Part shown: piece after piece, positions 9,048 through 54,379 of the stretch | Numbering within the stretch: position 1 is the first letter of the stretch | Layout: each line of letters opens with the position of its first letter | Assembly: GCF_030684315.1 (NCBI RefSeq) | Contig: NC_081390.1 | Coordinates: 23,173,288-23,237,287 of the forward strand | Direction: 5' to 3' | Source of the DNA: Stegostoma tigrinum | Lineage: Eukaryota | DNA length: 64,000 nucleotides | Notes under the pieces: generated by a model | What the model was told of the DNA's origin: nothing | Seen by the model: the letters and a program-made list of their open reading frames with translations, nothing else | Database searches by the model: none | Translations under genes and position numbers: made by a program

Positions 9048-9121
9048 AAAAGTATATATAGCCCAGTGACATAACCACTAATGGCAACCTCCTTCCAATA
9101 CTTAGTTGTAGGCAATTAATA

Positions 9122-9339
9122 CAGGAACAAAAACAAAGTTGCTGGAAAAGCTCAGCAGGTCTGGCAGCATCTTTGGAGGAGAAAACAGAGTTAACATTTC
9201 GGGTCCAATGATCCTTCCTCAGGCACCGGACCTGAAACATTAACTCTGTTTTCTCCTCCACAGATGCTGCCAGACCTGCTGAGCTTTTCCAGCAACTTTG
9301 TTTTTGTTCCTGATTTACAGTATCCACAGTTCTTTTGGT
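9122..9339. mobile_element. Fold-back PLE family B mini-element with hammerhead motif (9191-9222, minus)
   Basis: About 85-bp inverted arms 9122-9206 and 9228-9312, plus one-sided tail. TSD AATTAATACAGG/AATCAATACAGG (9114-9125, 9340-9351). Confidence 0.85.
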
Positions 9340-9906
9340 AATCAATACAGGGCTCTTCTGTCATAACACCCACACCATGGTAATTCTGACATTACCAAGG
9401 CTGTAAGCTTTGCTTGGTTTCCATATGTTTTGTGACTTACACACCAACCTGTGTCGGGTGGAGTGAGGAAGTTTCAAAAGAAGTCTTTAAAACTGGTCAG
9501 CTTTGTAGTCTTATTTAGATGTCATGCTTCATATCATCGACAGCTTGGCCATGAGCTAAATGAAAGGCTAATTTGACAAGAAAAGGCACAATCACTTAAA
9601 AACAAACAAAAGCATCTGTGGATGCTGTAGATCAGAGACAACGATAGAAATTGCTGGAAAAGCTGAGCGGGTCTGGCAGCATCTGTGGGGTGAAATCAGA
9701 GTTAACGTTTCGGGTCAAGAGACTCTTCTTCTGGGTCATCTGATTCAGCATTGATATGACCGATAGGAATACAGTGCTGGGTGCTCTACCCTGAAAGAGC
9801 ATACCAACAGGAATACATTAGGGTTGCAAGCAGCAAGTTTGAATACACAAACAGAAAGAAAACTGCTGCCTGAACAGGGAAACTAGACACGCTGTACCAC
9901 CTAAAT

Positions 9907-10036
9907 GACAAAGTGTGAAGCTGGATGAACACAGCAGGCCACATCAGGTGCTCCTGAGATGCTGCTTGGCCTGCTGTGTTCATCCAGCTTCAGACTTTGT
10001 TATCTTGGATTCTCCAGCATCTGCAGTTCCCATTCG
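9907..10036. mobile_element. Fold-back PLE family A mini-element
   Basis: 34-bp arms 9908-9941 and 9967-10000, one-sided tail, 15-bp TSD CTGTACCACCTAAAT (9892-9906, 10039-10053). Confidence 0.88.
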
Positions 10037-11684
10037 CTCTGTACCACCTAAATTGGGATACACATTGAATACATTTTTAACGGGTGTAGCAATTTTATCA
10101 GCTGACCCCATCACTTTGTTTAGCTTTACAACTATTGCTGTCCCAATGCTGACATCCTTTGCCTTGCTGATTCGCCAAAGTTTAACTGATTGTCAGGAAA
10201 CCTGTGGATCTCACAGCCACAAACGGGAGTGAATGAGCGAGGAAATGGGAAGCTGATCTGTGGTTGTCTGCAGAGTGCTCCTTCCTGCAGTTTGTCTCCC
10301 TCCGATTCTGCGTCCATTAAGGCCAATTGTCAGTCTTCTGCCCAGTGACTGCTTGTGGGTCAGAACTATTTCTAACAGGGGCGCAGAAGACAACCCTGTC
10401 CCAAGCATACCGCCAACTGTGTTTCGGAACTGGGCAAGGATGTCGGGATGTGGTTCCAGGTGAAGCTCTGCATTAAACTGCAGCCCAGAGAAAGAAACCA
10501 CTTTCAGATCACACTGCTAGACGTTGCTTCATTGAGCACAGAATGAATTATTTTGAAATTCCAGCATCTGCAGTAATTTGCCTTTAACTGGAAATAGTTA
10601 ACCCCCTGTCCAACGATGGTACAAACACAGAGAACGCTGGAGAAACTCAGCAAGTCCGGCCACATCTGTGGAGACAGAGATAAACAGCGTTTCTGAAGAA
10701 CAGTCATACCAGACTTGAAAAGTTAATTGTGTTTCTCTCTGCGCAGATGTTTACCAACACAGAACCTTACATATTTTTGAACACAGCTGTTAAATTTCCC
10801 CTTCACATTTCCTGCATTAAGGAGAACAATTCCAGCGTCACTGGTCTGCAATGCATTCAGAATCTGAGTCTGCTCCATCCGTACCGTGAGATTTCAGGCA
10901 CAAGGTTGGTACATTGTGAACCCATGCCTTGCTGGACACCCTCCAACGTTCACATCCTTAACCTCTAACTACTCACCGGATAAATTAGCTTGTTTCCCTA
11001 ACATCTTTAACAAGCAACATTAATCCTGCTTACATAGTTTTTAAAGACAGCCTGAAGTAAATATTAAAGTCTGATGTTTTACTTGTGCGTGCTCCAGTAA
11101 GGGGGTTTACTACAGAATCAGACTCATGCACTGACAAAACACTGCACTGCGGTGGCAAGAATGTTTTGTGGTTTCATTTGATTGAAGGTCAGAGCTGAGA
11201 TCAAGTGAGGCTCCAGGTAATGGCCAAGATCACCCACACCGTCATTCTAACGGAAAGAAACACATTTTGGTGGAGCAGCTACCTGTCATCTGAAGCTACA
11301 CACACAAGGGATATGAATTTTCATACATTCATTAGACCAAATGGCAGGAAATCAAAACGACAAAGCCCTGAAGAGCTCCCCAATTTAGAGCGAGTGATGC
11401 AGAATCTGTCAAGCAACCGAGGAATAATGACGAAAGTGAAAGCAGCTGACCACTGATCCATTAGCTGGCTCATTAGCTTCTCTTTATGCCCCGTGTCAAT
11501 CTCCTGACATGCACCGTGTGGGGAAATAAACAAAGCGGGATTAGAGCCTCAGGGTTATGAGGACCGAGGCATCCAGGTGTATCTGCTGTCATGCAGTAAG
11601 GGTATTATTAAATTTGGCTGCAGTTAAGGTACAAGTCACAATCAGTCAACTGCCCATGACACATCACTCCCTAATTTTACAATC

Positions 11685-12235
11685 ATAGAGTCATACAGCA
11701 TTGAAGCTGACTCTTAGGTCCAACCAGTCCATGCCAACCACAGTCCCAAACTAAACTAATCCCACCTGTCTGCGCTTGACCCATATTCCTCCAAACATTT
11801 TTTATTCATTTACCTATCTAAATATCTTTTAAATGTTTTAACTGTACCCCCGTGCACACTTTCTCTAGCAGTTCATTCCACACATGAACCACTCAATTCC
11901 CCTCATGTCTTTTTAAATCTTTTTTCCTCTCACCTTAAAAATATGTCCCTTAGTCTTGAGATCCTCCAGCCTCGGGAAAAGGACACCTATCATTCACCTT
12001 ATCTACACTCCTTATTATTTTATAAATCTCTATAAGGTTACCTCTCAACCTCCTATGCTACAGTGAAAAAGTCTCAGCCTATCCAGCCTCTCCTTATAAC
12101 TCAATGCCTCCATTCCCAGCAATATCCTGGTAAATCTCTTCTGAACCCTGCCCAGCTCCATAATACCCTTCCTATAACAGGAAGGCCAGCAGTGGACACG
12201 GTACTCCAGAAGAGGCCTCGCCAATGTCCTATATT
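11685..12235 (-). mobile_element. CR1/HER1 LINE 3' fragment
   Basis: ORF 12045..12296 YRTLARPLLEYRVHCW...RVQKRFTRIL...LSYKERLDRL, with (CTATGA)n tail. Confidence 0.9.
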
Positions 12236-12259
12236 CAGAGGTGTATTTACTTAAATTTT

Positions 12260-12445
12260 TGATGTGGATATGCCGGTGTTGGATGGGGATGGACAAAGTC
12301 AGAAGTCACACGACACCAGGTTATAGTCCAAAAGATTTACTTGAAATCACAAGCTTTCAGTGCATTGCTCCTTCACCAGGTGAAGTCAGACTTCACCTGA
12401 TGAAGAAGCAGCACTACAAAAATTTGTGGTTTCAAATAAACTTAA
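12260..12445. mobile_element. PLE family D fold-back with two back-to-back decayed hammerheads (12351-12379 minus, 12397-12426 plus)
   Basis: Centre CAGGTGAAGTC-A-GACTTCACCTG. Motif type CTGATGAAGGAGCAGCGCTCCGAAAGCTTGTG. 13-bp TSD TATTTACTTAAAT (12244-12256, 12455-12467). Confidence 0.75.
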
Positions 12446-13889
12446 TTAAATCTATATTTACTTAAATCAGGTGCATCTGATTATTTACATATTGCTAAAA
12501 AGAGTCTATAAGTTAAAGCTTTTTGTCTTGTACTCACCAGAACTAGGATACAAGAAACAGACTGTGCAATGAATGAAACCACCATCAGTTACACTGGAAA
12601 CAAACTTAAAGATCATCAACTGGGCTCACAGTAATGATGCATTGGCCAATGTTGGAAGCTACATACATAATTGCGCAGAACTTGTTTTACGGGTGCAAAA
12701 CAAACTTTTATAGATGTATTGCACCTTTTATAAAGAGAAGTTCAATGCAGATAGCCAAATGTTGCTGCATCTCCACGGCAACACTGACCAATCCGAATCT
12801 ATCTGTCTTGTCTAAGACTTAAGATTGACAGTTAACTGTTCTTGCTGCACCTCCATGCTTGTTATGGTCCAAACAATCAGCACCCTCTTCTCATTCTATA
12901 AAAAATCTTGTTTCTCTTCTCAAGCCTGTCCTAGTTCTGGTGGAGGCAAGATAAAAAGTTCAACCCGTAGTCTCCTTTTGGCAAAACTTGAGTTCTCTAC
13001 TGCCAAGCATTCACCTGATACTGCTACAATCCAGCTACTATCATTATTGGACAAATCAGATCCCAGAATGAAAACTAGCTTGATAGATCATATTTCATTT
13101 CTTCTTAACCTAATGTGGCAGTCTCTCACTGAAACATTAATATAAGCTGCTAATTTGCTTATAACAACAAAACAGAAGTTTATTACATAAATTCCTTAGG
13201 GAAATAGCCACCATTTGGAAAGCTCTTTTTGAGTTTGCAAAAAGTCCACAGTTCCTCCTGAAACACGGAGAAAATTTAAAACCATTTAGAAATAGGTTAC
13301 CTCTGGGAAAAGGTTTAATTTTAAAGTTCTAGATCAGTAGTGTTTGGTTAGAATACTGAAGGAATTATTTGAGGCCAAGAAAATCTCAGTCCAAGCTCAG
13401 TTGCATAAATAATTAAAGAAAATGCTATATAACTCTCAATACTACAAATTGAAAGAAACAGTTAAGTCAGACTCAAAGATGTGATAGAGAAAGGAAGCTT
13501 CTAGTCATAGGCCTCCAGCCTGAAAAATACCCTTCCAACTCTATCCTCTTTCTTCTATAGGCAACCCAATTATGTACAATAAATTTTTGTTGCATTGTTA
13601 AAAGAAATCCTGTGGCCTCGATGAGTGTGTTTTAGTGAAAATCCACATTGTGAAATACAAACAAAATAATCCATGAAGCCAGATTTCAGTCTGGGATCTG
13701 ACTTCTCAACATCAGCTGGGATTGTAACAATGGAAACGTCAATTCCAAAGTAGGGATACAGTCTGTTCAATTCAGACCTACCCGAACCTGCATGTATTGC
13801 CTGTCGTCCAAAGCTTAAGAAATCTGAACTTTATAATCAGGTACTTCATGTAGTTTTTGCACAACTTGTTGATTATTCTGGATACAGAA

Positions 13890-18000: not shown

Positions 18001-19344
18001 TGGTCAAAATTTAACAGCAGTTTTTTGGCAGGATCTGGGATACTTATACATCTAATGGACAGAAATAAGTGGGTAGAACGGAATTGGTGCCATGAAACGT
18101 TTATACAGTACAGGCAGTCCCCCGGGTGCACATGGTTTCTGTTTTCGATTCCATTCACACATCCAGAACACAAAGCAGAACAATGTTAAACAGCCGTGTG
18201 TAAATAAGTGGAGACATACTATAGTGGATCTTTAAAGTTACACTCCTGTATGGGATCATGTTCATAAGTCAGACATTCGTAAATTGGGGACCACCCCCCC
18301 ACCCTGTCATATAACACGCAAAAGGAACATTTAAATGTCACAGTCTTCTCTCCCACCTCCCACTTCAATGAAAGTTATTCCCCTTATCAAAACAATTGAG
18401 ATGTAACAACCAATTTCACAATCACAGAAAACTGTAGCAGAGTGAGATCGATGCGATCATGTTACAATGCAATTACTAACCAAAAATTGGGGATTGCATT
18501 ATAGGTGCATTGGTGCATGGCTGTGAGCTTTCTATTCTGTCTTTTACAATCCATATAAAACTTTTATCATGGGATTAGAACAATGAAGCGATGTCAGGAA
18601 CATTTTAACTCTGCTGAGGTCAAAATGCTACCCTTAAGGATGTGGTGGCCAAGAGGTACAGTCACTAGACAAGTACACTCATACAAATACTTTGGGGATA
18701 TGGGTTTGAGGCCCACCACTGCAGATGATGAAACTTATATTCTACCCTAATGGTGAGCTTGTAATCATTAAGCTGATGCCGTTAAAAAAAAACCCATCTA
18801 CCCCTTTGCGGCAGGAAATGTGCCATCGTCACCCGGTTTGGCCTAACTCTGACTGTAGGACCACACCAATATGGTTAGGTTAACTGTCCTCTGAAATGTC
18901 TTTTAGCCAACACACAAAATTTCAACTTTCTCACTGAAGCAAGATGCTTACACTGCTGGGGTCAGCTTAGTCTAAAACCTAAAATTAAACTGTTTGTTTA
19001 TAACAGAAGAAACCCCTTTCACTACTCATGCAGAGCGTTATTTTTAATCTAATGATGTCCTTTTTTTGGCCACTAGCTCATGTGATAGTTCACTGGAAAC
19101 CAGGTGCTTTACCATAAATCCCTTTTCAAAGAAACATAGTTCTTAACAAAGCCACAAAACTAAGATAAAATACAGAGCTCTTCTCTCCAGATGCTATTGC
19201 ATTGATAATTCCCAAACTTGGTCGAAAGTGGTCCAAGGGTGACCCTGTAATAGCCAGAAATTGATTGCTCACTGGCTGGACTGGTCATGAGTGCAATTCA
19301 GTTGTCGTGGGAAGAAATTTGAAACTCTCCTAAATGAGACGAAG

Positions 19345-19502
19345 AGACATAACAAGGTGTAGAGCTGGATGAACACAGCAGGCCAAGCAGCATCAGAGGA
19401 GCAGCTTTTCTGCTCCTCTGATGCTGCTTGGCCTGCTGTGTTCATCCAGCTCTACACCTTGTTATCTCAGAGTCTCCAGCATCTGCAGTTCCTACTATCT
19501 AT
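19345..19502. mobile_element. Fold-back PLE family A mini-element with a perfect 56-bp stem
   Basis: Arms 19349-19404 and 19410-19465 are exact reverse complements with a 5-nt loop. One-sided tail. TSD GAGACGAAG (19336-19344, 19505-19513). Confidence 0.92.
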
Positions 19503-20174
19503 GAGAGACGAAGTTCCTTTCAATGTTCTGAGAGCAGGTCTCAGTAAATTACGCATTTAGCAGCGTGGACTAGTGTAGTTCATGGCTGTGCAGGGCTCTA
19601 ACCTCTCTGCAAGAACCAACTTTTATCCAAACCAGCTGAAAATTCATGTTATTCCAACCTTGCATTTTTGGACAATATTCAGTTGTGGTCAGAACTGACG
19701 GTGATACAATCCTATTTTTCCACCCTCCCTGCACCATTCACCTTCAGGGATCCACACAGCCTTATATCCCTTGACCAGATTTTGTTCTGTCATTGAGTAA
19801 CCTCAGAAGGGAGCTTGGAACTGCAGCGACATTTTGAAAACATAATGTGCCACTGAACAAAATGCCTGAAGGCTCAATGAACATAATTAAGTAATGCATC
19901 ATTACTTATGCTAGGCTGCAAACCGAACCCATTGCACATTCACAAACATGGGAGCAACACATGGGAGTCAAAGAAAAATGAACAAAATGTTTGTCAACAA
20001 CAACATGAACCTGTATAGCACTTTTAAGATCATACGGTGGTTTCACTTGAATGATACTGTCAAACATTGACATTCAATATTCAAAGGTGGTGACACAAGA
20101 ACAGGTAACCAGGGATCTTGGAATTCCCTCCCCTAAGGGCATTGTAGATCTATCTACACCAAATGGACAGCAGT

Positions 20175-20488: not shown

Positions 20489-22809
20489 CTGTATAAACAG
20501 AACAGCAATTTATTGTCACTAGTAATGAAATGCAGTGAACTATGTATATGTCACCACAATTCAGTGCCATTTTAATTTCAAGAAACAGTAAAAATAAATA
20601 ATTGAGTGAGGACAACGTTGATCTTTTGTTCCCTCCATGGCTCCTAGGTTTATGGGGTGGCTGTGTGACGCTGGCCCTGAGGCTGCCAAAGCCAGGATTT
20701 CTGGTCAGGACTGACCACATTGCCACTGCCGAAGCCAACACTGAAATGACTGCACCTCCACCACAGCAAGGAGGAACAGACTGGCTGAAACTGTCACTCA
20801 AACCATCACCAGTACATTCAGTGGTTCATGAAAGCAGCTCACCACTACTTTCTCCAGCGTAACTAAGGACAAGCAATAAACGCTGGCCCAACCAGCGATG
20901 TCCATATCCCATGAGTGAATAAAACAAAATTGATCCCATAGACAGGTTTTATGCAGTGTCTCAGAGGAGGTACAGAGAAGAAACTGCAAAATGTAGGACC
21001 TGAATGGTAGAAGGCATGGTCGCCAATCCTAGGGCAAAGAAGACTGGGGATAAGGGCCAGAATTGGGAAGGGGCAGAACTCAGAAATGACTCTAAAAATT
21101 TGTGGAACTTACGGGCTCAGAGAGCTGAGCTCATGGTGGGGCTTGAACACAAGCAGTGGAATTGTAAAACTGGGACCGTGCCAGATCAGGAGTCAACACG
21201 GGTCAGCAAGCACAGGGGTGACAACTAAATGGGATTGAGTGCAAGGTGAGGCTTGCAAGGCAAAGATTTGGAATGGCTGGAGGTTATGGACGTTGAACCT
21301 AAACTTTTTTGACCTGTGACAAAGAAGATGCTAGTTTTGCCCAGGAGAATGCAATGGAAACAGTGCAATATTTTCCTCACAACTATTAAAACTTCACCAA
21401 CCTGAAAGGTTAACTTTATTTTTCTTTCCACAAACACAGAAAGACGTGTTGAGTACTGGCACCATTTCCTCAATCACTCTCACATTTTGCCACCTACAAA
21501 GTCCAGTATTTTGCCCTCAAATAGAACCCTAACACTTTACTCTGAGAATAAACACCTGCACTTGGAGTATTTGACTTAAGCTATGTGCAACACCATCTGG
21601 AGGTAACAAATTATTTTAGGAGAAGGCAACACGTGTCTATTGTTACTGTAAGGAAAAACAAATCATTATAATCTTGGCCAATGACTACAGGGGTGTTGAA
21701 ATAATAATGTGCTAGTTGTATTTTTGAACAAATCTGAATAGTATTCCAAAGGAAAGTAAAATTACCACAAGTAAAAATCATTTTAAGTAATGGTGGCACA
21801 GCCCGGTCTAGTGGAACATGTAGTCGGTAAAGTGTGGGGAGTCACGGGCCCTATCAGTGTCTCAATCACCACATGTGCACGAAGCAAAGCCAGCGACAGA
21901 AGTTTCAACTCAAGGCTTTGGGTTTGAGCAATAGCTGCGGGCACTGATGCATCCACGAGGCTGGGAGTCATGTAGATAACACGTTCACAGAGGCAGTCAC
22001 ATTGCAGCTTAAAGGCCTGGAGACAGAAAGAGAATGTGTGACCACTACAGAATCCAGGAGAAACGGGCAGGTAGTGCAGGAGTCTCTTGGGTTCGAAATT
22101 TCGAATCGGTTTTCCATTTTGCAAGCTGGTCAGGGCAATGGTTCCTCAAAAGTGTGCAGTCAGACCCAAGGCCGAGGTGACATGAACAGGTTGGCTGAAC
22201 AGATGGTGAGGAGGAAGAAAGGAGGTGCAATTGTGAGAGGGATTTCATTAATGAGAGTAACCACCAAATATTTCTGTGATCATAGACATGTCTCCAGGAG
22301 GGTATGTTGCCTCCCTGATGCCAAGGTAAAGGACAACACAGAGCAAGTGCTACACCCTGTTCTAGGGAGGGTGAACAGCCAGAAGTCATGGTCCACTTTA
22401 GTGCCAATGGCCTGAAGTGGAAGTGAGATGTGGGAATGAAGCAGGGAGTTAGCAAGCAGGACCTCAAATGTAGTAATCTCTGGATTACTCCCAATGCTAT
22501 ATGCAAGTGAGTACAGAAATAGGAGGACGAAACAGATGAATGTGCAGTTGGAAAGATGATGCAGGACAGAAGGTTTTAGAATTGGCTCTCAGGAAGATAG
22601 TAACTGTACAAGCCAGCTGGGTTGTACCAGAACAGAATTCGGACTGAGTTGCGGGTATTTTGTTGGCGCTTTTCAGTGGACTTTAAACTAATTCAGTAGG
22701 AAGTGTGGGAGCCAAGAGAGAATAATACTAGCGAGTTTTGAGAAGATTTGTAGCTCAGGTTGAGTTTCTGGATGTGAGTTTGCTCGCTGAGCTGGAAGGT
22801 TAGTTTTCA

Positions 22810-22843
22810 GAAGTTTCGTCACCATTCTAGGTAACATCATCAG
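22810..22843 (-). ncRNA. Minimal type I hammerhead ribozyme motif (PLE family E)
   Basis: CUGAUGA-U-GUUACC-UAGAAU-GGUGAC-GAAA-CUUC. Core intact, stem III palindrome mutated. Confidence 0.75.
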
Positions 22844-23692
22844 TGAGCCTCCGATGAAGCGCTGGTGTTATGTCCGCTTTCTATTTATCTGTTTAGGGTT
22901 CCCTTGGTTGGTGATGTCATTTCTTGTTCTTTTTCTCAGAGGATGGTAGATTGGCTCCAAATCAATGTGTTTGTTGATGGAGTTCCAGTTGGAATGACAT
23001 GCTTCTAGGAATTCTCGTGCGTGTCTCTGTTTGGCTTGTCCTAGGACGGATGTGTTGTCTCAATCAAAGTGGTGTCCTTCCTCATCTGTATGTAAGGATA
23101 CGAGAGATAGTGGCTCATGTCGTTTTGTGGCTAGTTGATGTTCATGTATCCTGGTGGCTAGCTTCCTGCCTGTTTGTCCAATGTTGTGTTTGTCACAGTT
23201 CTTGCAAGGTATTTTGTAAATGACGTTCGTTTTGCTTGTTGTCTGAATAGAGTCTTTTAAGTTCATTACCTGCTGTTTTAGTGTGTTGGTGGGTTTGTGG
23301 ACCACCCTGATGCCAAGAACCGTGACAAACACTACATTGGACAAACAAGCAGAAAGCTAGCCACCAGGATACAAGAACATCAACTAGCCACAAAACGACA
23401 TGACCCACGATCACTAGTATCCTTACATACAGATGAGGAAGGACACCACTTTGATTGAGGCAACACGCCCATCCTAGGGCAAGCCAGAGACATGAATGAG
23501 AATTCCTGGAAGCATGGCATTCCAACCAGAACTCCATCAACAAACACATTGGCTCCAAATCAATCTAACATCCTCTGAGAAAAAGAACAGGAAATGACAT
23601 CACCCATGCAGGAAATGACATCACCAACCCAAGGAAACCTAAACAGATAAATAGAAAGTGGGACATAACACCAGCGCTTCATTGGAGGCTCA

Positions 23693-23725
23693 CTGATGAT
23701 GTTACTAGAATGGTGACGAAATGTC
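23693..23725 (+). ncRNA. Minimal type I hammerhead ribozyme motif (PLE family E)
   Basis: CUGAUGA-U-GUUAC-UAGAAUG-GUGAC-GAAA-UGUC. Confidence 0.75.
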
Positions 23726-25099
23726 TGAAAACTAACCTTCCAGCTCAGCGAGCAAACTCTCATCCAGAGAATAATACAGAAGAATGTCAGGATGCAATAG
23801 GTATTTGGAGACTAAAAACACTAGTAAAAAGGATAAAAAAATTCAAGAGTTTAAGTTGCAATGAGGGAGAAAGGAATGAATTTTAAATCAAGGTTACTTT
23901 TCACATAGTATAGTAAATAAGACTGGGGAGTTATAGATGTGGATTGCCATATAGAAATATGTTATGGTGATAATTGAGAGCTGAATGTTAAGTATTCCTG
24001 GGTCCAAGAGTGTTGAGAAAAGACAAGAAAACAAAAAAAGGAAGATGGTGGCAGGTTAAGTACAGAGTGGGAGAAGGATGAGGTTTCAATGGGTTCAAGG
24101 ACAGAATCAATCTGAGTGCAGTTACAGAACATAAAAGGATGAATTTTCCTACTCAGTATAGTCTATGGAGTGCCAGTTGGAAGGATGCAAGGAAACAAAT
24201 CCGCGGGGAAAGTAGAGAGCCAACATTGTAGAGAGACTATAATTGAGGACTTTAACTACCTGAATATAGATTATGAGAACGGCAGCACACTGTGTGGAGA
24301 GAAGCAAATGTTCCTAGATTGAGTTCAGCTTTTTAATCCATTTCATTACAAATTTGGATTTTCACTTCACTGTAAAGTGGAAACCTTGCAAATCAGAAAA
24401 TCATCGCTTTAATTCCCAATAAAACTCAATGAAACAGGTTACAGGGAAGGAAGCACCATCAGTAACCATTTCATTAGTATTTAGAATTAACAGTATTGCT
24501 GGTGCAATGGGAGGCCATTACAGGTAGCTTGTGTGAAAATAAAACCACTTAAATGACTTTAGGTTTAATGTGTCCGTGGAGATGCATAAATATTTCATTA
24601 CATGTTATTTCAAAGTTGTAATAAATTTGCTCGTCTCTTATGACCATAAGCACAAGTGATAAAATACCCTTGTCTCAAAAAGGCTGGCAAATTAGAGAAA
24701 ACATTGCGATTAGCTGGGAGAGCAATGTTTGCCAGGGAGAGGACCTTGCTCATAAACAGTGAAATCAGTTCTTTAACATCTATGTGAAGCCAATGGCAGT
24801 TCAACACTTCAACCAAGGGCCACATCCAAAAATTCAACAGTTCCTCACACCTGCACTAGTCTTTCAGCTTAGATTACACGATCCAATATAGTAGAAGGGC
24901 TTAAACTCATTTATCACAGCATAGCTGTTTCAGTTTAATAGAAACAGCTTTCTTGGGACCCCTCAGTTTGTTTTCCTCATGCTTGATTTCCTTCTGAAGT
25001 TTAGCACTGTTCCCAATGATAACGAGTGGGTAAATCTTATCACTGAAGTCACTGTTTGGTTTCTCATTGTACAGCTGTTTTGTGTCCTGATCAACAACA

Positions 25100-26966: not shown

Positions 26967-27546
26967 CTATACCCAACCAAGCCACTGGGAGACGTACTGC
27001 TACTTTATAATCTTGAAGAATATGAGAGGCCAGACAAACTTACTCTTTTTAAAGTATGACAGCAGAAACTTTCTTGCAGTGTAATTACCTCTGATGCGAG
27101 GCATATATATCCCACAAATAATTACAAGCAAATGGCACAGTAGCCTGTTGCCTGTGCCATCCTAGTCTTACCCTCTGACTGACAAACTAAGCCTCAGTTT
27201 GTCAGTACACCACACGAGCGACAGCCAATTGGCATTTAACTCTTCTGATAATCATCTCCATTTTGCAGATGCGGAAGCAGGGTACAGAATGCAGCACACA
27301 ATCTGTCACTACAGCTAAACAAATAGGTGTTTGCATCGGATTACACTGACCATATTCAGCCCGTTTAAACACCTGCTCCCAGAATCAATTCCCTTCATCC
27401 TTCATTGAAATGAGCAACGGATGGTTATGGCACAAAATGCCACTAAAAGCCCTTTGAAAAGACCCATCTTATAAATTATGCCAACATAATCTTTTGCCTC
27501 TGTAATTCCTTCAGTGAGTGTATTGCAATGAAAGAGGAGTACAGGA

Positions 27547-27961
27547 TCAGAGATAATGGGAACTGCAGATGATGGAGAATCTGAGATAACAAAGTGTGGA
27601 GCTGGATGAACTCAGCAGGTCAAGCAGCATCTTAGGAGCACAAAAGCTGATGGTTCGGGCCTGGACGCTTCATCAGAGAGGGGGATAGGGAGAGGGTTCT
27701 GAAATAAATAGGGAGAGAGGGGGAGGAGGATCGAAGGTGGATAGAGGAGAAGATAGGTGAAGAGGAGACAGACAAGTTGAAGACAAGAGAGTTGCAGTAG
27801 GAGAGAGATCCCCTGAGGTTTGTCCGGAGGGAGGAGGGTAACTTCTTCAGGTTAGGCATCCCTCGAAGAGGCTTTGCAGTGAGGTCTGAAACATCAGCCT
27901 GTGTGCTCCTAAGATGCTGCTTGGCCTGCTGTGTTCATCCAGCTCCACACTTTGTTATCTT
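27547..27961. mobile_element. Fold-back PLE family A element with decayed hammerhead (27646-27676, minus)
   Basis: Arms about 27584-27660 and 27886-27960. 11-bp TSD GGAGTACAGGA (27536-27546, 27962-27972). Confidence 0.88.
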
Positions 27962-28259
27962 GGAGTACAGGACCAGTAGATCTTCATTACAACTGATAGC
28001 TTCAAGGTTCAGCAGGACTCCCCCAGAGGAGAAACGCAATACAATCTCTGTCTGCTATGTTGTAACATCATAACGTGTGCTTTGAACCTATTCCCGGCTC
28101 GGCCATGGGTATTACCATTCCCCATACTTCCTCATCTCCACCAGGCAAGGTGGGATTTTCAGAAAACTACTGACAGACAATCCAAGGGTCATATTCTTCT
28201 GGGTGGCCACACAGAACAGGCAACACTGGATCAGCTGCCGTGGTTCCAATGAAACCAAA

Positions 28260-28602: not shown

Positions 28603-28991
28603 CATATAAGATGTGGCATTGTGTGTTAAAAATGGCCTTTTTCATATTGACCAACAAGTCAGACTCCAACACTTACTGCACAGAAGGAGGCCATTTTCCC
28701 ACAAGGCTTAGACACAGAAGCAGGCCATTCAGCCCATTGAGTTAGCTCCAAATTTTAACGAGATCATGCCTGATCTGATAACCCTCAACTCCACTTTTCT
28801 TGCCTTTCCCCCATAACCCTTGATTCCCAATTAATTAAAAACCTCTGTAGCAATGTCCTGGCTGCTAAAACACAGACTGAGAACTTGGCCAAACAGCAAG
28901 GGATTCTGGGCCAAGTGAAACTCTAAAATCACAAAACCCACACACAGACATGTTGCAATTAAAGCAGCTAGGTGTGAACAACATTAGCATA

Positions 28992-29420
28992 CTTGCGAAG
29001 GGTCTTGCGAAGATCTGTAGCTCGGGTGGTGGATGAGGTTGTTGGCTCGCTCGCTGAGTTGGCTGGTTATAGCGAGTTTTGAGAAGATTTGTAGCTCAGG
29101 TTGAGGTTCTGGATGTGAGTTTGCTCGCTGAGCTGGAAGGTTAGTTTTCAGACGTTTCGTCACCGTTCTAGGTAACATCATCAGTGAGCCTCCGATGAAG
29201 CGACGTTGTTCTACTCTGCTTAATATTTATATGATTATCTGTTAAGTTGGTTTATGTCATTTCCAGTTCTGTTCTGCATGGGTTTGTACATGGGGTCTAA
29301 TTCAATATGTTTGTTAATTGCATTATGGGTTCAAATCCAGGCCTCTAGGATATAAGGCCTGGATTTCAACTCATAATCTGTACGATAACCTGCCAGCTCG
29401 GCGAGCAAGTCAACAGCTAA
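28992..29420 (-). mobile_element. Composite PLE family E insertion (older variant with a young pseudo-LTR end at about 29071-29212)
   Basis: 9-bp TSD ATTAGCATA (28983-28991, 29421-29429). Older part encodes LEAWI*THNAINKHIELDPMYKP, a PLE C-terminus. Confidence 0.8.
29151..29184 (-). ncRNA. Fully intact minimal type I hammerhead ribozyme motif
   Basis: uca-CUGAUGA-U-GUUACC-UAGAAC-GGUGAC-GAAA-CGUC-uga. All core bases, 6-bp stem II, ACGU palindrome, GUC cleavage triplet, UCA/UGA stem I. Confidence 0.85.
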
Positions 29421-33382: not shown

Positions 33383-33436
33383 CTCACATCTCTCAACACC
33401 TTTGCTGACCAAAAACCATCCATCTCAGATTTAAAA

Positions 33437-33638: not shown

Positions 33639-35589
33639 TCAGAGTTAAAATGAATTGATCAATCATCAAGAGCTATTTACAGAAGACAATTCTAAACCTC
33701 CACGCTGTGTGAAAAAATGTTTCCTCACTTCATGCCTAAAATGACCAGCTCCAATTTTTAAGACAACGATCCTCATGTTAGACTCCAACCAGCAGAAACA
33801 GCTTCTCGTACTTACATCATTTTACTTGTTACCTTTTCGCAATTACTGACATGGAATTTTATCTCCCCTAATACTCCCTGTAATCTTCTGCTCTTTGAGA
33901 GTATTTTTTGCTGCACTATTTGAGTGTTTTTTTTTGTCAATTCTGCAATCATCCTCAGCTGAAGAATGGGTGAGGTGACTGAAGGAATGGGGCAATAAAA
34001 GTATTCAGGAACGTACAGGCTTAGGGCAACTGGTAGATAAACATCAACAACAAATCACAGGACCAAACCTGCCCCTGGTAATTTCTGGCAATTTGTCATT
34101 TCTGTGATAACTCCAGCCATAATGTGGAGGTGCCGGTGTTAGACTGAGGTCACATGACACCAGGTTACAGTCCAAGAGGTTTATCTGAAATCATAAGCTT
34201 TCAGAGCTCTGTTGGACTATACCATTGAGTCGTGTGGCTTCTGACTAATTCTAGACAAACACTGACTGCAAAAGATGGAAATTCTATCTCAGTAGTTTCA
34301 GTCAATGGCTCAAGTATTAAGTAATTGTCTGTTGGTAGTGTATTGTGGTCCTCTTCTTCTGTTGGCCTGCTGGTGATTAAAATCTGAAGAAAAACATTAT
34401 TGCTGTTAATGGCTGAGCAATTAGATTTTTGAGCATCTGTTTCGAGTAATTATACCTGCCAAATGTAGGCATCTTGTGTGCAATTTCTAATTTAAAACCA
34501 TCTGTTCATAAAATAATCACAACTGAAAATAATTCTATGTATCTCTCTTATCCACAAAAGAAAAACAAACAAAATTGTGTGGTTATGAGGACTTTGTGAG
34601 AGCTCTCATTAAGTGCAAAATTGACAGATCACTTTTGCAACAAACAAGTACACAGTAATGGATACCCGGGAGTGAGATTAGGTGATGCATGGGCTAACAA
34701 GCTTCAACTCAAGAATAAAACTGGAACAGTCTGGAACCATCATTTAAAGACAGATGAAAAATTACAGTTTAAAAATGAGCCTCTAGTATATTTTCTAAAT
34801 AACAATAAGTATTATTAACAATTGGAGTGTTTTGTTGCATTGTTAGAATTGAATAGGCCAACTGTTAGTGCACATAATATCAACAAAACGTGCTGTTATT
34901 AATAAACGGCCAAACAATTGGCTGCACTTGGGTGGGGGGGGGCACGAAATAAAGAAATGAAATAAAGCCTATGTTCACATTCTCTTAAAAGAGAAAGAGA
35001 TACACTGATATCACACTTTTTATGGCCTCAGAATGTCCCAAATAGACAATGAAGTGCATTTGAAGTGTAGTTACTGTTGGAATGTTACTAACATTGTAAC
35101 GGAATACAAATGTAAAAGCAGATTTGCCTGCAGTTTCTGGGCCACCGACCAAAAGCACATGAATGTCTTGGAGGCACTTTATAGAATCAAGGCCAAGAAT
35201 GTTCTACAAACAGAGATTCAGATGGACTACATTTGAATCAGTGACAACTTTGAAAGACAACATACTCCATAGATGACACGGAGCCCATAAAGTACATTTC
35301 CCACTGCATTAGACCCAGGTTTTGCAGTTTTTGCTACTTATAGAGTCATAGACTCAGGCAGCACAGAAACAGACCTTTCGGTCCAACCAGTGCATGCTGT
35401 ATGCCTTCACCCGCTGTGTTACCCAGAGGCAGTTGGGGTGACAGGTGATAGTGATGTGGCAGGTTGCTATCAGCTATTGCCTGAGGTAAATTCTAGCCAC
35501 TTATTCTGGAGTTTATAGCATTGGGCAGGATGCGCATATCCACTGCTATCATAGGAATACAGGGTTTGATTTATAAAAGCCAATGGAAT

Positions 35590-43881: not shown

Positions 43882-46604
43882 AGAAGATGTGGTCTTCCCT
43901 TTGGCTCTTCAGAAGGGCACGAGTGGAGTAATTAGACATTTGGAAGTTCCACATATATTATCAACATTACCACACCCTGAAACACTGGGAACTGGCAGCT
44001 GAAAGTCAGCGTTTGTTTACAGAATATATAATTGACTGCATTTTAACTTCTGATTACTTCCTTTGATATATGAATGGAAATGATTTGAATGTTCGGCAAG
44101 TTTCCATTATCTTGGTAACGGGATCTGAAGACACAGAGTACTTTTTTCCTAATTGAGACCCAAAGGCATAAATGTTTACGCTTGAGTGTGCGAAAAAAAA
44201 ATTAACAATCTCTCTACAAAATATTAAAGTCCATGTAAAGCTAATTTAGCTCAAGGCCATAAATCTTCAGAAAATAGCTGACAAATTAGGAGCTCAGAAT
44301 GCACACTAGTGACAGAAATAAAAATGGGAAGTGCTGGAGTAGCTCAGCAGGTCTGGCAGCATCAGTGGAGAGAGAAGCAGAGTTAATGTTTCAGGTCGAA
44401 GACCTTACATCAGAAGAAAGATTAAAAAAGCAGTGGTTTTAGGCAGCATAATGGGGTTGGGTGTAATATGAATGAATGGGAAGGCCTGTGATAGGAAGGG
44501 AGAAGGATGCATTAAATGAAGGAGGAGTTCGGAATGGGTGTTGTAAAGGAATCAAAGGGTGCCTACAGCAGCTGTGTATGACAGAATGACATACAATCAT
44601 CTGAAAGGAACTACAGAATAACAAAGCTAAAACCTTTTCTTTATTCATTTATGGGATGTGGGTGTCACTGGCTGGGCCAACATTTTATTGACAAATCTCT
44701 CATTGACCTTGAGAAGGTGCTGCCTTCTAGAATTGCTGCAGACTCTGGGGTATATGGGTTGGGGAGGGAGTTCCAGGATTTTACTCAGTGACACTGAAGG
44801 AACAGTGATGTATTTCCAAGTCAGGATGGTGAGTGGCCTGGATGGGAGCTTGTTCCTATGTATCTGCTGCCCTTGTCCTGCTTGATGGAAGTGGTCATGT
44901 GTTTGCAAAGAGCTGTCTAAGGAACCTTGGTGAATTTCTCAGCGCACCTCATGGATGGTACATACTGCTGCTAAAAACAGAAATAAAATAGATGCAGGGA
45001 CTCTGGCACAAGACTACTGAACTCAAAGTTGAATCTAGAATAATTCCTAACTTTGCACAAATTCTCTGTACTTAAATCCCAAATAAAAACAAAGCATATT
45101 TACAGATTGAATAACAGACGAAGCCTTTCCATGGGTCTAACTGGAACGGGTTCAAATTGAACAGTGGAGTCAGATGAATAAATTATTGATAAACAGCTGA
45201 ATAAAGCTGTCGGAGGTGCACAGTACAGGGCTTAATTTCTAGAAGTACAGAATTCAAAAGTAAGTTGAACTTTATTGATCTCTTTCTGCACCTTCTCTGC
45301 TGCTGTAACATTGTGTTCTGCACTCTGTTCAGTCTCCCTGCTGTATTTGATGGTACGTTCTGCCGGTATAGCACAGAAGACAATACTTCTCACTGTATCT
45401 CAAAAGATGTAACAATACTAATACCAATACTAATCATTAACAATAAAGCCTTGAGTAGTGAGAATCTCAAAAGTGCTGTATGTAGCTTTGTCTTCTTATA
45501 TTATAAAGAAAAGAGAAAAGCACAAACCAGGAGCAAAAATGATTTGCATTGGTGATACCTGAAGTGAGAAGATATAGTTTCAGTAAAGTCTCAACAGACT
45601 TGAACTCAGGACTTGTGGGCAGATGGAGAAAAACAGAGTTAACGTTTCAAGTACAGCCTCAGTCTTCCCTGGAAGAGATATGCAGATGAAGAAGAGTGGA
45701 GGGAGGAAGGTGTGGATGACAGACACCAGCCTGGAGTGGATGGGCTGCATGGCCTGTTTCCATACTTGAAGGTTCTATGTCTCACTGCTGTACAGTCTCC
45801 AGATTGTTTAGTGCACAACTTCAATTACAGAGCTATCAAAGGATTGTAAGATTATTAAGACCTCAAGTTATCTCCTTTCCAGGGCTTTACAAGAAAAATC
45901 TACCTCTATCCACATCATTACACTGCTTGACGAGGCAATTATAAACACATGCAAACAAGCATTCAGTGCACATATGGCCTCATAATATTGGTCAATGAAG
46001 GATCTCTGCTCTATTAACAATAAGAGTCTGCTTAGACTTGTTTGCTTTATAAATAAGAACAATTAAGCTGTGCTATGTCTTAACAGCGACATGCCATAAA
46101 GACAGTAACACTGTTAAAAACTAAAGGAACAATTAAGAAACTCAAAGCAAAACAAGCCACGAATGAAGAAAGTATCAATGCAAGTTCGTACATGAGTACA
46201 CCAGCAACTTTTATTTGACAAATGTAGCAGACATCTTCAACACAGCACAATCCAAAAGCATGGGATAAATGGTCAAGTGATAGGTTTCTGGTGGAATTGG
46301 ATTTTTAAACATTTTAAAATTCATTGACAGGACAAGGGCATCACTGGCTAGGCCAGCATTTATTGCCCATGCGTGATTGCCCAGAGGGCAGTTGAGAATC
46401 AACCACATTATAGTGAGTCAGGTGTCACATATATGTTAGACCATGTAAAGATGGCAGTTTCAGATTAAGTGAACCGGGCGGGTTTTCCTGACAATCGATA
46501 ATGGTTCCATGGTTATCATTCGACTCTTAATTCCAGATCTTTATTGAATTCAGATTCTACCAATGTGCCATGGCAGGGTTCAAACCTGGCTCCCCAGGAA
46601 ATTA

Positions 46605-46831
46605 AGAACAAAAACAGAAGTTGCTTGGAAACCTCAGCAGGTCTGGTAGCACCTATGAAGGGAAATCAGAGTGAACATTTCGGGTCCAGTGACCCTTCCT
46701 CAGAATGTTGGGTCACCAGAACCGAAACGTTAACTCTGATTTTTCTTCACAGATGCTGCCAGATCTGTTGAGCCTTTCCTGCAATTTCTGTTTATGTTCC
46801 TGATTTACAGCATCCACAGCTCTTTCATTTT
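46605..46831. mobile_element. Fold-back PLE family B element inserted in a SINE-b
   Basis: Inverted arms about 46605-46694 and 46710-46799. TSD CCCCAGGAAATTA/CCCCAGAAAATTA (46592-46604, 46832-46844). Confidence 0.87.
46674..46703 (-). ncRNA. Minimal hammerhead ribozyme motif (family B), core intact
   Basis: CUGAGGA-A-GGGUC-ACUG-GACCC-GAAA-UGUU. Confidence 0.75.
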
Positions 46832-48943
46832 CCCCAGAAAATTACCTGGATCTCTGGATTAGCAACCCAGCAATAATATCACAAGGCCACTGCCTCCCCT
46901 GGCTATGAGCAGAATGTGATCAAAGACAGCTGGAAAGCACCCTCTTCCCCTGTGAGCATTGCAAAGGAGTCATAAACATCATTTTACTTGTGACATTGGA
47001 AGGGAACATTGCAACTTCTCGCATTCCAGTTGCCTGAGATTTATTGTCAGATGGCTCTGTGCAGCAAAATACCGAGGCGGTGGGGGGAGGTCATTCACAA
47101 ACAATTTATCAAGTTTCCTGATTGAATGATATCTGAGCATAGAGCTGGTCTCGAAAACTCATTGCTTCAGATCGCGAGTGACATCCTTTTCATTCAGTAC
47201 CGTGATGCCACTTGAAGGTAACAAGCCAGAGCACCAGATCAGAGCTGGTACACACTCCAGCAGAATGTAAATTGCTGTCTAATGAGATTTTGCATTGTGC
47301 ACACACTTCATTCTGCTGGCATTTAGTTTAGCAGCTGTGGTGGTGGAAAATGGGCAGTCTGTACGATTACTTTGTACCAGGGTGACATGATAGCTCACAG
47401 CAATTCACAATACAAACAAAGTCACCGCAATCGGTGTCGGAAGCAGGCATTGTATTATCTCCAAGCGTCTGAATTAAGATTCAATTCTGAATATTAAATT
47501 TCTCCCAGTTTGTTTTCCCTGTTATTTCACACCTTCCAGTTATGTTTGCCTGATATAATCGTCCTGGTAGACGGTTGAGCTATTTTTAAACCTTGAGTTT
47601 TTGTGGACGTGTGCTCTGCACAGTCTGAATCTCTTCACCCCCTTGTTTCTACTTGGGTTGTGAGGATCGAGGAATCTCTTTTACAAGGACCAGCTAAGCT
47701 GCTATTTTCTGGAGGCTGGGTAGAAGCAGCAGAATTCCTCAGATATCTCCCTCGGAGCAACTCAGTCTCAGATGCTGCTGGAGTAGTATCAGAGGGGATG
47801 GATTGTGCATTCCATCACTGCTTGGCAGAGTATCCAAGTCTTGATCTTGGCTTGATGTCCCTGATGATCTGAAGGTCAACTACGTGCGGGCTGAGTAAAG
47901 GCAAGGTGAGACATGGCGAGGGCTGATTCTCATTGTTTGTGCTCTCAGTAGGGTGGCCCGTTGACTGGAGGTCACCTCAGTGAATGGTAGGTCAACTGGG
48001 CAGGGTGCCAGAACACTGCTTGAATGTCTGCAGAAATATATTTTGGTGTGAAGCAAACAGCTTCAGGAGAGGAGAGGCATGCAAAAAGATACTCATGAAA
48101 AATGCAAAAGTGCCGTGATCAAGACTCCAAACAATTCCAGCTTACATTCTGATTCCATTTTCTCTCCGCTGGTACGGACTGCCCTGCTAATCTACTCACT
48201 TCCGGTCTGAGTGGTCTCCTTTTCACCAAGCATGTTTAATCCATGTACGCCTCCAAATTTCCACTGGGACAGCTGGCAAACTCTCACCTCCACTCACCAA
48301 CAGCCTCATAAGTAACATCCGTCCACCGTCCTCAGTTCGGCCCAGTGCACCTAACTGTGCTCAATTGCCCTAAGTGGCGAGTGGCAGGCAATGAACTGCC
48401 CCCGCCAAAGTATTCTCACAGAGTCATACAGTCATACTGCACACAAACTGACCCTTCGGCCCAACAAGTACAGACTGACAGTAATCCCAAACTAAACTAG
48501 CCCCACCTGCCTGCTCTTGGCCCAAATGCCCCCAAACCTTGCCTATTCATGAACTTGTCCAAATGTCTTTTAAACACTGTAACTGCACCCACATCCCCCA
48601 TTTCCTCAGGAAGTTCATTCCACACGCAAGCCACTCTCTGTGTTAAAATAGTTGCCCCTCATGTCCTTTTTACTCTTTCCCCTCGCATCGCAGGGTATTC
48701 TTTGAACCTCACATAGGTCGGATTGAAAGCATCTGTCCCCCTTAGTTGAAGGGTCAATAATAAGGAGGCAACATTTTAAAGAGAAAGCCAGGACAGATCC
48801 TGAATGCATTCTCACTGCGTGAAAACTGTCCCACTATAAGGCTTTCCTCCCTTTTCCATTGCTATTTATTTTGATCTGCTCCGTAGGAACCTCCTTTCGG
48901 AGGGGCTGTTTTCTTGGGAGCAGAGAAGGCTGAGGGGGAATCT

Positions 48944-52105: not shown

Positions 52106-52477
52106 CTTGCACTGGCCCAGATTGAACACAAATCAAAAGTCTGTCTGACAGCTAGGGAGATAAGAAGGGTAGGGGGTGACACAGAGGGAGTGACCCAAAA
52201 TGATTTCAGAGATATGCAACATAATAGCACAGCTTAACAGCACATAATCAGAGTTCTACAGAAACTAGTTTAAAAAACCATCACAAAAAGGTGTACAATT
52301 TCATGCATGGAACGCTGCTAATGGCTAAATGGTCTGATTGTGTCTGTATGCAGTGACAGGGCCCTTCACCATGGGCAGCTCAGACTATGAAGAGACTGAC
52401 TCCATCATCAATGAGAATTGCTATTTTATCAACAGCAGCGAGCAAGCTGGCTCTCAGGGTGGAGCTGCAAATCACCA

Positions 52478-52643
52478 ACACACACATGCACGTTATACAC
52501 ACACACACACACCATGGCACACACACACACACACAATGATTCTCTCTCTCTCTCATACACGCACACACACCATGACACAACACGCACAGTGATTCCCTCC
52601 CACTTACACACATACATACACACGCGCACACACACTCACGCAC
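52478..52643. repeat. Imperfect (CA)n microsatellite with a (TC)n patch
   Basis: Directly visible. Confidence 0.95.
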
Positions 52644-52957
52644 AGCCTGAGTTCAATGAAAAGCAATTGCTCTGATCTTCTCACTGCAGGTGTCTCCCAT
52701 CTCCTTCAAACCAAAGCTGAATGCCTATTGTGACTTCCCAACTTACCCTGCCTTGCCCCCATCTCACACAGAGAGCACCAGCCATAGATATCTCCTTTGG
52801 CCCCATCTACCTCACTGAACCCCACCCATACTCACCAAACCCAAGCATCCACCGAGCCCAATCACCTAACTGCCCATTTCCCCTTCCCCAGACTAACCCG
52901 TCCCTCCATCTACTACATACTCCACTGCTCATACCCTCCCCAAACTTCACCTTACAG

Positions 52958-53129
52958 AAATCTGTGAGAACCGCGGATGCTGGAAATCAGAAACAAAAGC
53001 AGAAATTTCTGGAAAGCACTCAGCAGGTCCTCAGTTGGGACACTAGGCCCAAAATGTTAACTGTTTTTTTCTCTTCACAGGTGCTGCCAGACTTGCTGAG
53101 GTTTTCCGGTAATTTCTGTTTTTGCTCTG
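52958..53129. mobile_element. Fold-back PLE family B element, decayed
   Basis: Inverted arms; 9-bp TSD ACCTTACAG (52949-52957, 53130-53138). Confidence 0.75.
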
Positions 53130-54379
53130 ACCTTACAGTGGCCTTGCCGAATCCAAATCTATTCTCAATTTCACTAAATTGCAGCAGCCACTACATTTAA
53201 TAAAAATGACTGTGAAGCAATTAAGGATGTCCTGAGGCTGTCAAAGTGCTGTGTCAATTTAAATTTTGTTACTCGATTTCTGAAAACATTAGACTTTTCC
53301 CACCTCACTGGAAGAGGGGACTACTACAACAATTCATGCCTGGTCTGTTACGGTCTACAAAGATCCATCAAGCGTAGAAATACCCCTGAGGAGATAAAGG
53401 TAGAGGCAAGATCACCTTCGTCCCAGAGGACTGCTCCCTCATTTGAGAGAGATGACTTGTGGGTGATTTAACCTGATTGTCACCATATCTCAGGTGAGGG
53501 GAGAGGTTGAGAAGCAGAGTCCTCATGGTAACTTCAGCTGGTGTAGGAATTAAACCCATCATACCTAACCATCCAGCCAACTGAGCTAACTGGAGGAAGG
53601 CACAGGCTGGTGCATGGAATTCCATGCACGATGAGTTCGTAAACCCAGGAGTCCCACCATGGAAGTGCTTCCAAGCATCAGGAGTGAAAGACATTGAAGG
53701 GTAGCAGCAATGACTGGCTGACAATATGTCATGCCTGCTCCCCATTTCTATGGAGACAAAGTATGCAACAGCGGGCAGAGAAATTCATCAGGAAATACTT
53801 TGGGAGAGCTGGAGGAGCATACTTTGAAAAGGAAAATCAGGAAAATAGACAAGAGGACTCTATTTTTGTGAAATTTTGAAAAATATCACATGTCCCCCTT
53901 CTGGTATGGGTTGCACATTTTTTTTGCCAAACTAAACACACATCAGACATGATCCTGGCAAGTTCTCTATCTCTCATGTTCCCTGCTCCAAGTAAAGCTA
54001 CAGAAAGAATCATTAGACTTTTGCTATTTCTGTTGCTGGTGTCTGACTTGAATTATTGCTTAAATTCCAAACACTGGAATGATCAATTGGATTCAACAAG
54101 CTTGTGGCTTATCACTGTTTGATGGGCGAGGATATCGATTTTGTTTTCTCTTCTCCTTTCAATCTGCTTCTCGGTGCATTGTCATCCATTCCGCAGCAAA
54201 TTAATTTTTACTTGAAGCGATCCACAACTGAATGCCTGCACAGCTGCCTGCAAAGTTGAAACCAAATTTCCAAATGGCCACGCAAACAAAGAGCCTTCTG
54301 TCTGGGGCAGAAGTGAGCAAAACTCTCTGTCTCAAAATTAACATCTGAATGGTTTGAACCTTTATTGGTCGGGCCTGTC

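Follow-up and report, generated by a model that had tools for sequence, protein, structure and literature searches.

Short fold-back insertions in a zebra shark genomic window: evidence favouring paired priming by Penelope-like elements

How does a genome come to hold a short hairpin whose two arms are inverted copies of each other, whose termini are unequal, and whose flanks carry a duplicated target site? The question is raised by a 64,000-nucleotide stretch of the Stegostoma tigrinum genome (NCBI RefSeq assembly GCF_030684315.1, contig NC_081390.1, positions 23,173,288 to 23,237,287 of the forward strand), here called the window and numbered from its first letter. An earlier reading of the letters alone, the original prediction, had named nine such insertions as one family of fold-backs, similar in look to miniature inverted-repeat transposable elements (MITEs) and made by retrotransposition of Penelope elements. 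Here we follow up that reading, and we find that the evidence favours two separately primed complementary DNAs (cDNAs) over snap-back copying or MITE amplification. The fold-backs are probably dead-on-arrival insertions of endonuclease-bearing Penelope-like elements (PLEs), each one made anew, in which two cDNAs were joined head-to-head.

The nine sites were located by an inverted-repeat scan and self-BLAST of the window, and the family letters used below (A1, A2, B, C, D, E and F) are labels of this analysis. Two inverted arms are present at all nine, in every case head-to-head, with 82-98% identity over 34-430 shared nt. We searched for target-site duplications (TSDs) at the insertion boundaries, with 1,500 random boundary pairs as the null; all nine sites score between 9 and 15 (each p<=0.002), while 0.2% of the random pairs reach a score of 9 and none reaches 11. 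The duplications measure 9, 9, 11, 12, 12, 12, 13, 14 and 15 bp, have no sequence in common, and lean towards AT (68% vs 57%). Three sites belong to family B: 9122 (9114..9348; insert 9126-9336, 211 bp) has a 12-bp TSD, a 28-nt tail on its right arm, and a tail-less left arm that begins at C3 of the predicted hammerhead ribozyme core (9222); 46605 (46591..46844; 226 bp) has a 14-bp TSD with one mismatch, a 31-nt tail, and a left arm beginning 2-6 nt upstream of the core; and 52958 (52949..53138; 172 bp) has a 9-bp TSD and a short left arm that carries a 36-nt tail. The family B tails of 28 and 31 nt are the shortest of all. Two sites are A1, namely 9907 (9892..10053; 132 bp), with a perfect 15-bp TSD and a 38-nt tail on the right arm, and 27547 (27536..27972; 415 bp), with an 11-bp TSD, a 37-nt tail on the long left arm, and a right arm of 79 nt. 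The A2 site, 19345 (19336..19513; 160 bp), has a 9-bp TSD, arms that are 98% identical, a 36-nt tail, and a right arm that begins at the predicted ribozyme cut site, inside a 3-nt microhomology. At the family C site, 12260 (12244..12467; 198 bp, 13-bp TSD), both arms begin 8 nt upstream of the core and lie 1 nt apart, and the right arm ends early to leave an asymmetry of 75 nt. The family D site, 33437 (33425..33650; 202 bp), has a 12-bp TSD with one mismatch, a 39-nt tail on the right arm, and a 12-nt palindrome at its central junction. The family E site, 22729 (22717..23777; 1,037 bp), has a 12-bp TSD and a left-arm extension of 41 nt, or 38 nt after overlap with the TSD; remnants of GIY-YIG coding sequence lie in both of its arms, and a 9-bp micro-inversion and a 21-bp duplication set the two arms apart. 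Much of the plan first proposed for these insertions stands: inverted arms, a 9-15 bp duplication around the whole, and a one-sided extension are found at every site. Its dimensions need amendment, with the tail of ~30-38 nt becoming 28-41 nt at eight of the nine, but 75 nt at 12260, where the short arm stops early, and the size range of 130-430 bp fitting eight (132-415 bp) but not 22729.

Whose ends are these? The best protein matches of the retroelement remnants in the window are whale shark and zebra shark proteins. A long family A arm (30903-31659) encodes a GIY-YIG remnant (Pfam E=0.015), and the A1 remnant is 76-87% identical to shark proteins that have a reverse transcriptase (RT), a Cys-rich linker and GIY-YIG. 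The shark homolog P0001 holds RVT_1 and GIY-YIG and matches window positions 31337-31687 at 76%; another, P0002, runs on into the spacer and hammerhead at 5898-6230. A CX2-5CxxC linker precedes GIY-YIG in P0001, P0002 and P0007, and the copies in the window are truncated before it. For A1, one open reading frame (ORF) that holds a PLE-type RT and, at its C terminus, GIY-YIG is thereby found via the homologs, the window itself keeping only the GIY-YIG end. RT, Cys linker and GIY-YIG in that order form the Neptune layout in the passages of PMC8557442, and the protein comparison supports the view that family A is a Neptune-type, endonuclease-positive PLE. Family E carries a different GIY-YIG remnant that is similar to P0001 (E=8e-5), and its atlas lead shows GIY-YIG on 17% of members; no Cys linker was seen in the ~25 residues before its motif. 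This family appears Poseidon-like from the geometry that it shares with the anole element PAc and from the lack of the linker, with no RT seen in the window. No coding sequence for families B, C or D was found in the window, and these three are putatively Penelope-like by their end features only, B, C, D and F being known here only by their ends. A core-and-stem scan with helix I pairing predicts a minimal hammerhead core, a stem II and a helix I of 2-4 bp in families A to F, the minimal metazoan kind that the relevant part of PMC4209133 describes for PLEs. The Rfam hammerhead models gave no match at gathering score in the whole window and none by E-value in 27400-33700. A search of prokaryote genomes with P0001 returned no relative, and a 31-nt motif searched against viral contigs gave 0 matches; a 21-nt end motif found at 31 loci in metagenome contigs was set aside as chance matches, the similarity to the window stopping at about the motif. 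The GIY-YIG homologs, together with hammerhead motifs in all families, bear out an origin by retrotransposition from Penelope-like elements. A family of its own these insertions are not: an inverted pseudo-long terminal repeat (pLTR) with a 31-bp tail and an 8-10 bp TSD is already described in passages of PMC3846280, and likewise in PMC8557442 and PMC8969392.

The 3' ends of the arms could be followed beyond the window. Assembled contigs of four public runs were mapped on positions 5790-6230, which hold a single tail-bearing A1 copy (5793..6220, minus strand, 13-bp TSD) whose tail end lies at ~5808-5815, its tail-less end at 5846-5848, position +1 of its cut site at 5911 and its core C3 at 5939. 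Runs X1 and X2 are from one organism and one study, X12 and X13 from two others. About 200,000 contig pieces map to one family in one run; the counts given here are among the best-supported events listed, with a further 119 joints, 286 between-letter events and 1,645 loose ends beyond them, and some events are uncounted. Two 3' end peaks stand ~32-39 nt apart in X1 and X2, both with long, unrelated flanks. The tail end peaks at 5815 (1,214 and 1,268 contigs in X1 and X2), and with ~7 consensus letters shared there the end itself falls near 5808. The tail-less end peaks at 5846-5848, with 721, 2,409 and 847 contigs in X1, 734, 2,328 and 858 in X2, and 629 and 148 in a second organism, X12. In the window, the tail-less arms of family A end around TTGTTATCT with a spread of ~-5 to +3, and the family E ones stop at CATCCAGA, seen at 23768 and again at 32256. 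An ATG inside the hammerhead core of family E stands 112 nt from the tail end and 74 nt from the tail-less end, and the stretch from this ATG to the tail end is an open frame of 37 codons. Passages on the anole Poseidon element (PMC11167929) report two RT start sites that bound the tail, synthesis starting 111-118 nt into an ORF whose beginning lies in the hammerhead, and, in vitro, nicking and extension of both target strands. The reproducible, family-specific stop of tail-less arms in the original prediction is therefore real and already explained, because it corresponds to the second of these start sites.

These ends suggest how a fold-back could be built. The GIY-YIG nuclease would nick both target strands 9-15 nt apart, which would give the TSD, and each nick would, in one and the same event, prime reverse transcription of the element RNA from one of its two internal start sites, ~36 nt apart; one arm would then carry the tail and the other would lack it. 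The two cDNAs would point inwards, stop early, and be joined end to end into a head-to-head hairpin with a centre peculiar to each locus, and where only one cDNA was kept, a single arm would result. Each of the nine fold-backs has exactly one tail, a result of p<=0.002 had the arms taken their starts without regard to each other; the two ends are therefore coupled. Twin priming as such is familiar from LINE-1, where cDNA synthesis is primed from the two target nicks and end-joining unites the products. In LINE-1 the process inverts non-overlapping parts of one RNA, whereas here both arms copy the same terminal segment, each from one of two fixed start sites.

A second regularity concerns the other end of the arms. 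The hammerhead core is reached by 23 arms: 14 start 0-8 nt upstream of it, nine run on for ~80-630 nt, and none begins between. In 11 of the 14 short arms the 5' end is pinned by a junction, by a TSD or by the break in a host repeat, and for 9733, 30879 and 44413 it is placed solely by where similarity is lost. If the chance of stopping is set at 0.03-0.25 per 9-nt window, the pile-up of 11 of 20 arms has p between 2e-12 and 0.004, though the arms are not independent of family. Upstream of the boundary nine family B arms are unrelated to one another (mean 25%), while three long A1 arms are 74-81% identical. On the A1 reference, 618 contigs of X1 and 623 of X2 (median 255 nt) have a loose end at 5940, one base before the core, and for these two runs no other internal loose end on the 5' side is listed; agreement there is 0.37, and it is just as low at the 3' junctions. 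From 5939-5945, head-to-tail joints lead back to either 3' end (five joints; 48 and 40 contigs), with unit lengths of 97-98 and 127-131 nt. A smaller class of joints in both X1 and X2 runs from 5911, the first base past the cut site, to the tail end, and the arms at 19402, 43819 and 29378 likewise begin within -2 to +2 of a predicted cut site. In PMC11167929, RNA-seq showed no reads with a start or an end at the ribozyme cut site.

What would stop so many cDNAs just upstream of the core? The simplest cause would be an end of the template RNA at that place. The arms and joints at the cut site could come from stalling at the ribozyme fold; as a general cause stalling was rejected, as it fits arms beginning at +1 to +8 and not those beginning upstream of the core. 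A spliced exon was also considered, in view of passages on D. virilis in which the 5' end of helix I coincides with an intron end and the start site is placed further up (PMC4209133; PMC2377424), and it was set aside: there is no spliced joint among the 15 listed joints and loose-end agreement is low, though a very short exon may fit. Contig depth per bin also drops upstream of the hammerhead, a figure we do not use as contig depth cannot rank parts. Several facts weigh against reading the boundary as a general RNA end. The short arms are all A2, B, C or D (14) and the long ones all A1, E or F (nine), which confounds the boundary with family; three A1 arms in the window reach the core and none of them stops there; and A2-like relatives may co-map in the A1 contig mapping. 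A speculative proposal, which on this sequence evidence we hold unlikely, takes the short arms for strong-stop cDNAs that were integrated and that mark the RNA 5' end; its steps can be set out. RT would start near the 5' end of its RNA, 75 or 112 nt into the ORF, and leave the template where that end lies, a few bases ahead of the core; the cDNA would then jump to an RNA 3' end made by self-cleavage of the downstream hammerhead, the ~30-nt ribozyme core serving as a terminal redundancy like R in retroviruses. Failed jumps would leave the single arms of 97-130 nt and the fold-backs, jumps to a start site would give short tandems, and a jump to the cleaved RNA of the wrong family would give the junction at 58037 described below, a single post-hoc example.

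The same evidence must be weighed against other origins of the second arm. Snap-back self-priming, in which a nascent strand or an antisense RNA bends back at a palindrome and serves as its own template, leaving a tail or having one resolved by the endonuclease (PMC3846280 for the model and PMC8557442 for the resolution, in the passages concerned), gives one tail per insertion without further assumptions. It would suit the near-perfect central symmetry of 12260, where the loop is 1 nt and the short arm does not end at the family site, the 12-nt palindrome of 33437, the short palindromes at 29322-29377, and the segment 31427-31837, whose right arm (31660-31837) has no pLTR end; the arms at 9122, and those at 27547, also share variants absent from other copies. 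Yet the tail arm reaches further 5' in only four of the nine, the tail-less arm in another four, with one tie, and the longer tail-less arms mean that copying one cDNA back on itself cannot give those four. The fixed tail-less ends are found on single arms too, as a start site would give, and both strands are primed in vitro in the account of PMC11167929. The arms of 22729 are harder still to derive from one another, in that the right arm shares its 9-bp micro-inversion and 21-bp duplication with an unlinked copy at 31831 and not with its own left arm, whose state is carried by a more distant copy at 29070. The micro-inversion preserves the frame and is flanked by a 4-bp inverted repeat (22960-22980, 23545-23566 and 32033-32054). 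We read these two arms as apparent copies of two segments of template; gene conversion is the other option, and here too there are points on the other side. Only two structural characters separate the arms, because the single-base differences of the three long family E copies are star-like (19, 17 and 14 sites; identities 91-92%), and gene conversion, or two differing repeats in one master RNA, could leave the same pattern. The four snap-back-like cases just given count against a purely twin-primed origin as well, as do the genome-wide joints. No head-to-head junction occurs among the 15 best-supported joints listed, which is at the same time a weak sign that no single hairpin was amplified. 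Eight joints are instead tail-to-tail, with tail end against tail-less end in every case and on opposite strands (reference 5807-5815 with 5847-5852; 92 and 80 contigs); none was found in the window, and they are not predicted by the model that we favour. Snap-back copying as the source of the fold-backs seems to us improbable, and twin priming and snap-back may both operate.

A different proposal would change the template and leave the fold-back mechanism as it is: the short arms would derive from non-autonomous, retrozyme- or SINE-like (short interspersed nuclear element) masters of ~100-130 nt that use the Penelope protein, and their 5' end would simply be the start of the element. In the window, B, C and D arms never reach more than 8 nt upstream of the core, the unit lengths of the head-to-tail joints are of the right order, and parts of 10.64898/2026.07.22.740005 describe pLTR-related tandem hammerhead units in vertebrates including one cartilaginous fish. 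The boundary is nevertheless the same in four families with different stem II sequences, it appears on the A1 reference, whose upstream sequence is contiguous with an ORF, and the variable central junctions are left unaccounted for; we regard short masters as conceivable but doubtful. A MITE-like DNA transposon built from Penelope ends, whose hairpins a cut-and-paste transposase amplifies, would explain the overall look of short inverted arms within a flanking duplication, and it is very improbable given duplications that vary from 9 to 15 bp with no common sequence, termini that are asymmetric by 28-75 nt at all nine sites and not symmetric terminal inverted repeats, and single arms that are as numerous as inverted loci, three of 12 tested having clear TSDs. 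The central junction, moreover, is different at every locus, and centres and sizes differ even among three B and three A loci. Fixed duplications and symmetric termini, the marks of a MITE in the original prediction, are thus absent from the window, and its view of MITE look-alikes made by retrotransposition is sustained. Chimeric fold-back reads, or another artefact of assembly or sequencing, would sit with the fact that no listed contig spans any of the nine fold-backs; with arms that differ by 2-18%, significant TSDs at the insertion boundaries, and family-fixed ends that recur in other runs and a second organism, this origin is exceedingly improbable. Two separately primed cDNAs per insertion remain the reading that the evidence favours.

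Are fold-backs then the usual outcome of insertion? Profiles built from the window copies gave 45 matches at E<=0.05 (18 shuffled searches gave two), which our own grouping places at 28 loci. Fourteen of these have an inverted arm and 14 are single arms, and fold-backs of up to 430 bp make up only 11 of the 28, which does not sustain the proposal that fold-backs of 130-430 bp are the dominant product. Short fold-backs are common, not dominant; it is short arm length that dominates, not folding back. Of 12 single arms tested (50003 and 30877 were left out), three have TSDs at p<=0.002, one at p=0.029, and eight have none. Five inverted loci come in addition to the nine, at 10618, 28994, 30903, 34121 and 57805, and among them only 28994 has a TSD, a marginal one of 9 bp (p=0.029). 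This locus (28985..29427) is a composite in which a family F tail segment is followed by an E-like tail end, a short palindrome, and an F-like tail-less arm from about the cut site. At 29068-29070 the E-like tail end is joined directly to an F segment that begins ~8 nt past the cut site, which is a cross-family head-to-tail jump inside one marginally TSD-bounded locus. In the composite at 30903..32256, with no TSD found, the long A1 arm with its GIY-YIG remnant is followed by an inverted copy of 178 nt, the inversion centre (31637-31660) holding templated filler, and then by a family E arm; the Neptune-type and Poseidon-like GIY-YIG segments meet at a microhomology of 4-7 nt (31831-31837), and either a cross-family template switch or a later deletion may have made this junction. 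A hammerhead fragment (30877-30902) adjoins its tail end. The third composite, 57805..58367, again with no TSD found, joins a family C arm, whose 5' end lies 6 nt before its own hammerhead core (junction 58037), to a fold-back of family F with a left arm that stops at the predicted ribozyme cut site (junction region 58030-58072). A single family B arm at 57879-57970 interrupts the family C copy, and the copy at 5812 is inserted against the 5' end of the copy at 5691; Penelope ends serve as insertion targets for each other. The remaining two, a further family C fold-back at 34121..34262 and a B-like one at 10618..10750 with a junction at 4-5 nt of microhomology, are degraded, and no TSD was found for either.

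The window around these insertions is repeat-rich and resembles vertebrate intron. A cadherin-domain exon lies at 50718-51083 on the minus strand (Pfam E=2.7e-5), and the fold-back repeats probably lie in introns of a cadherin-type gene. Other repeats are present as well: a dispersed family comprises 8551-8704 and ~12 related copies (for example 1-105, 7278-7362 and 16546-16664), one copy having a hammerhead-like core match at 8672 on the minus strand; dispersed repeats of ~300 bp occur in seven to eight copies (28293-28604, 30153-30451, 48944-49296 and similar), and by their appearance we take them to be SINE-like; and 63341-63860 is a tandem array with a period of 17 bp, 30.6 copies and 89% matches. 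The fold-backs at 31570-31694 and 33435-33604 match Rfam microRNA precursors, all below gathering score, and do so because of their hairpin shape. Penelope hairpins are liable to be falsely labelled as MITEs or as microRNA precursors.

How does all this compare with known systems? In the passages of PMC3846280 and PMC8557442, complex insertions of endonuclease-positive PLEs share with ours the head-to-head inverted copy, there of a 5'-truncated pLTR, the tail, there of 30-40 bp, at one end, palindromes at some junctions, and a hammerhead near the 3' end. Their TSDs are 8-10 bp in rotifer copies, while those here reach 15 bp; our copies are often just two ends without an ORF (132-415 bp in eight of nine), at a density of 28 loci in 64 kb; and neither a fixed 5' stop at the hammerhead nor arms from different templates, both found here, is reported in those passages. 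PAc, the Poseidon element of Anolis carolinensis (PMC11167929, in part), starts 111-118 nt into the ORF against 112 nt for family E, and is alike in the tail between two RT starts, an ORF that begins inside the hammerhead, and AT-leaning targets; that study found no RNA-seq reads at the cut site, whereas here there are genomic joints at 5911 and at the core start. The type I hammerheads of metazoan PLEs, in the relevant part of PMC4209133, likewise have no helix III, a short helix I and a palindromic 4-mer before the cut, and that source counts thousands of solo motifs, with opposite-strand pairs 100-700 bp apart in Schistosoma, though it does not tie them there to insertion boundaries. It places the 5' end of helix I of Drosophila virilis at an intron end, while no spliced joint is among the joints listed here. 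Non-LTR retrozymes, as presented in parts of 10.64898/2026.07.22.740005, are short hammerhead units related to pLTRs that occur as monomers and tandems; they are defined as head-to-tail tandems, whereas the copies here are inverted pairs or single arms with TSDs, with no head-to-tail hammerhead tandem unit in the window and only a minority of such joints among those listed genome-wide. In a literature search that had subscription papers, Repbase and Dfam entries and figure-only supplements outside its reach, we found no report of a 5' stop at the hammerhead, of two-template arms, or of a strong-stop model for Penelope.

The fold-backs are a known architecture of Penelope-like insertions in miniature, and as a new family they are ordinary; the hammerhead-bounded 5' end and the two-template evidence are the additions not found in print. 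The later steps of the Penelope cycle and the role of its hammerhead are called unresolved in passages of PMC11167929 and PMC8557442, and the strong-stop proposal, if true, would give the Penelope hammerhead a function and would explain how the pLTR is regenerated. The value of the fold-backs lies in the large natural record of Penelope reverse transcription that they form: in any shark assembly their arm ends and junctions can be placed to the single base, and there they discriminate twin priming from self-priming and also test ribozyme cleavage in vivo.

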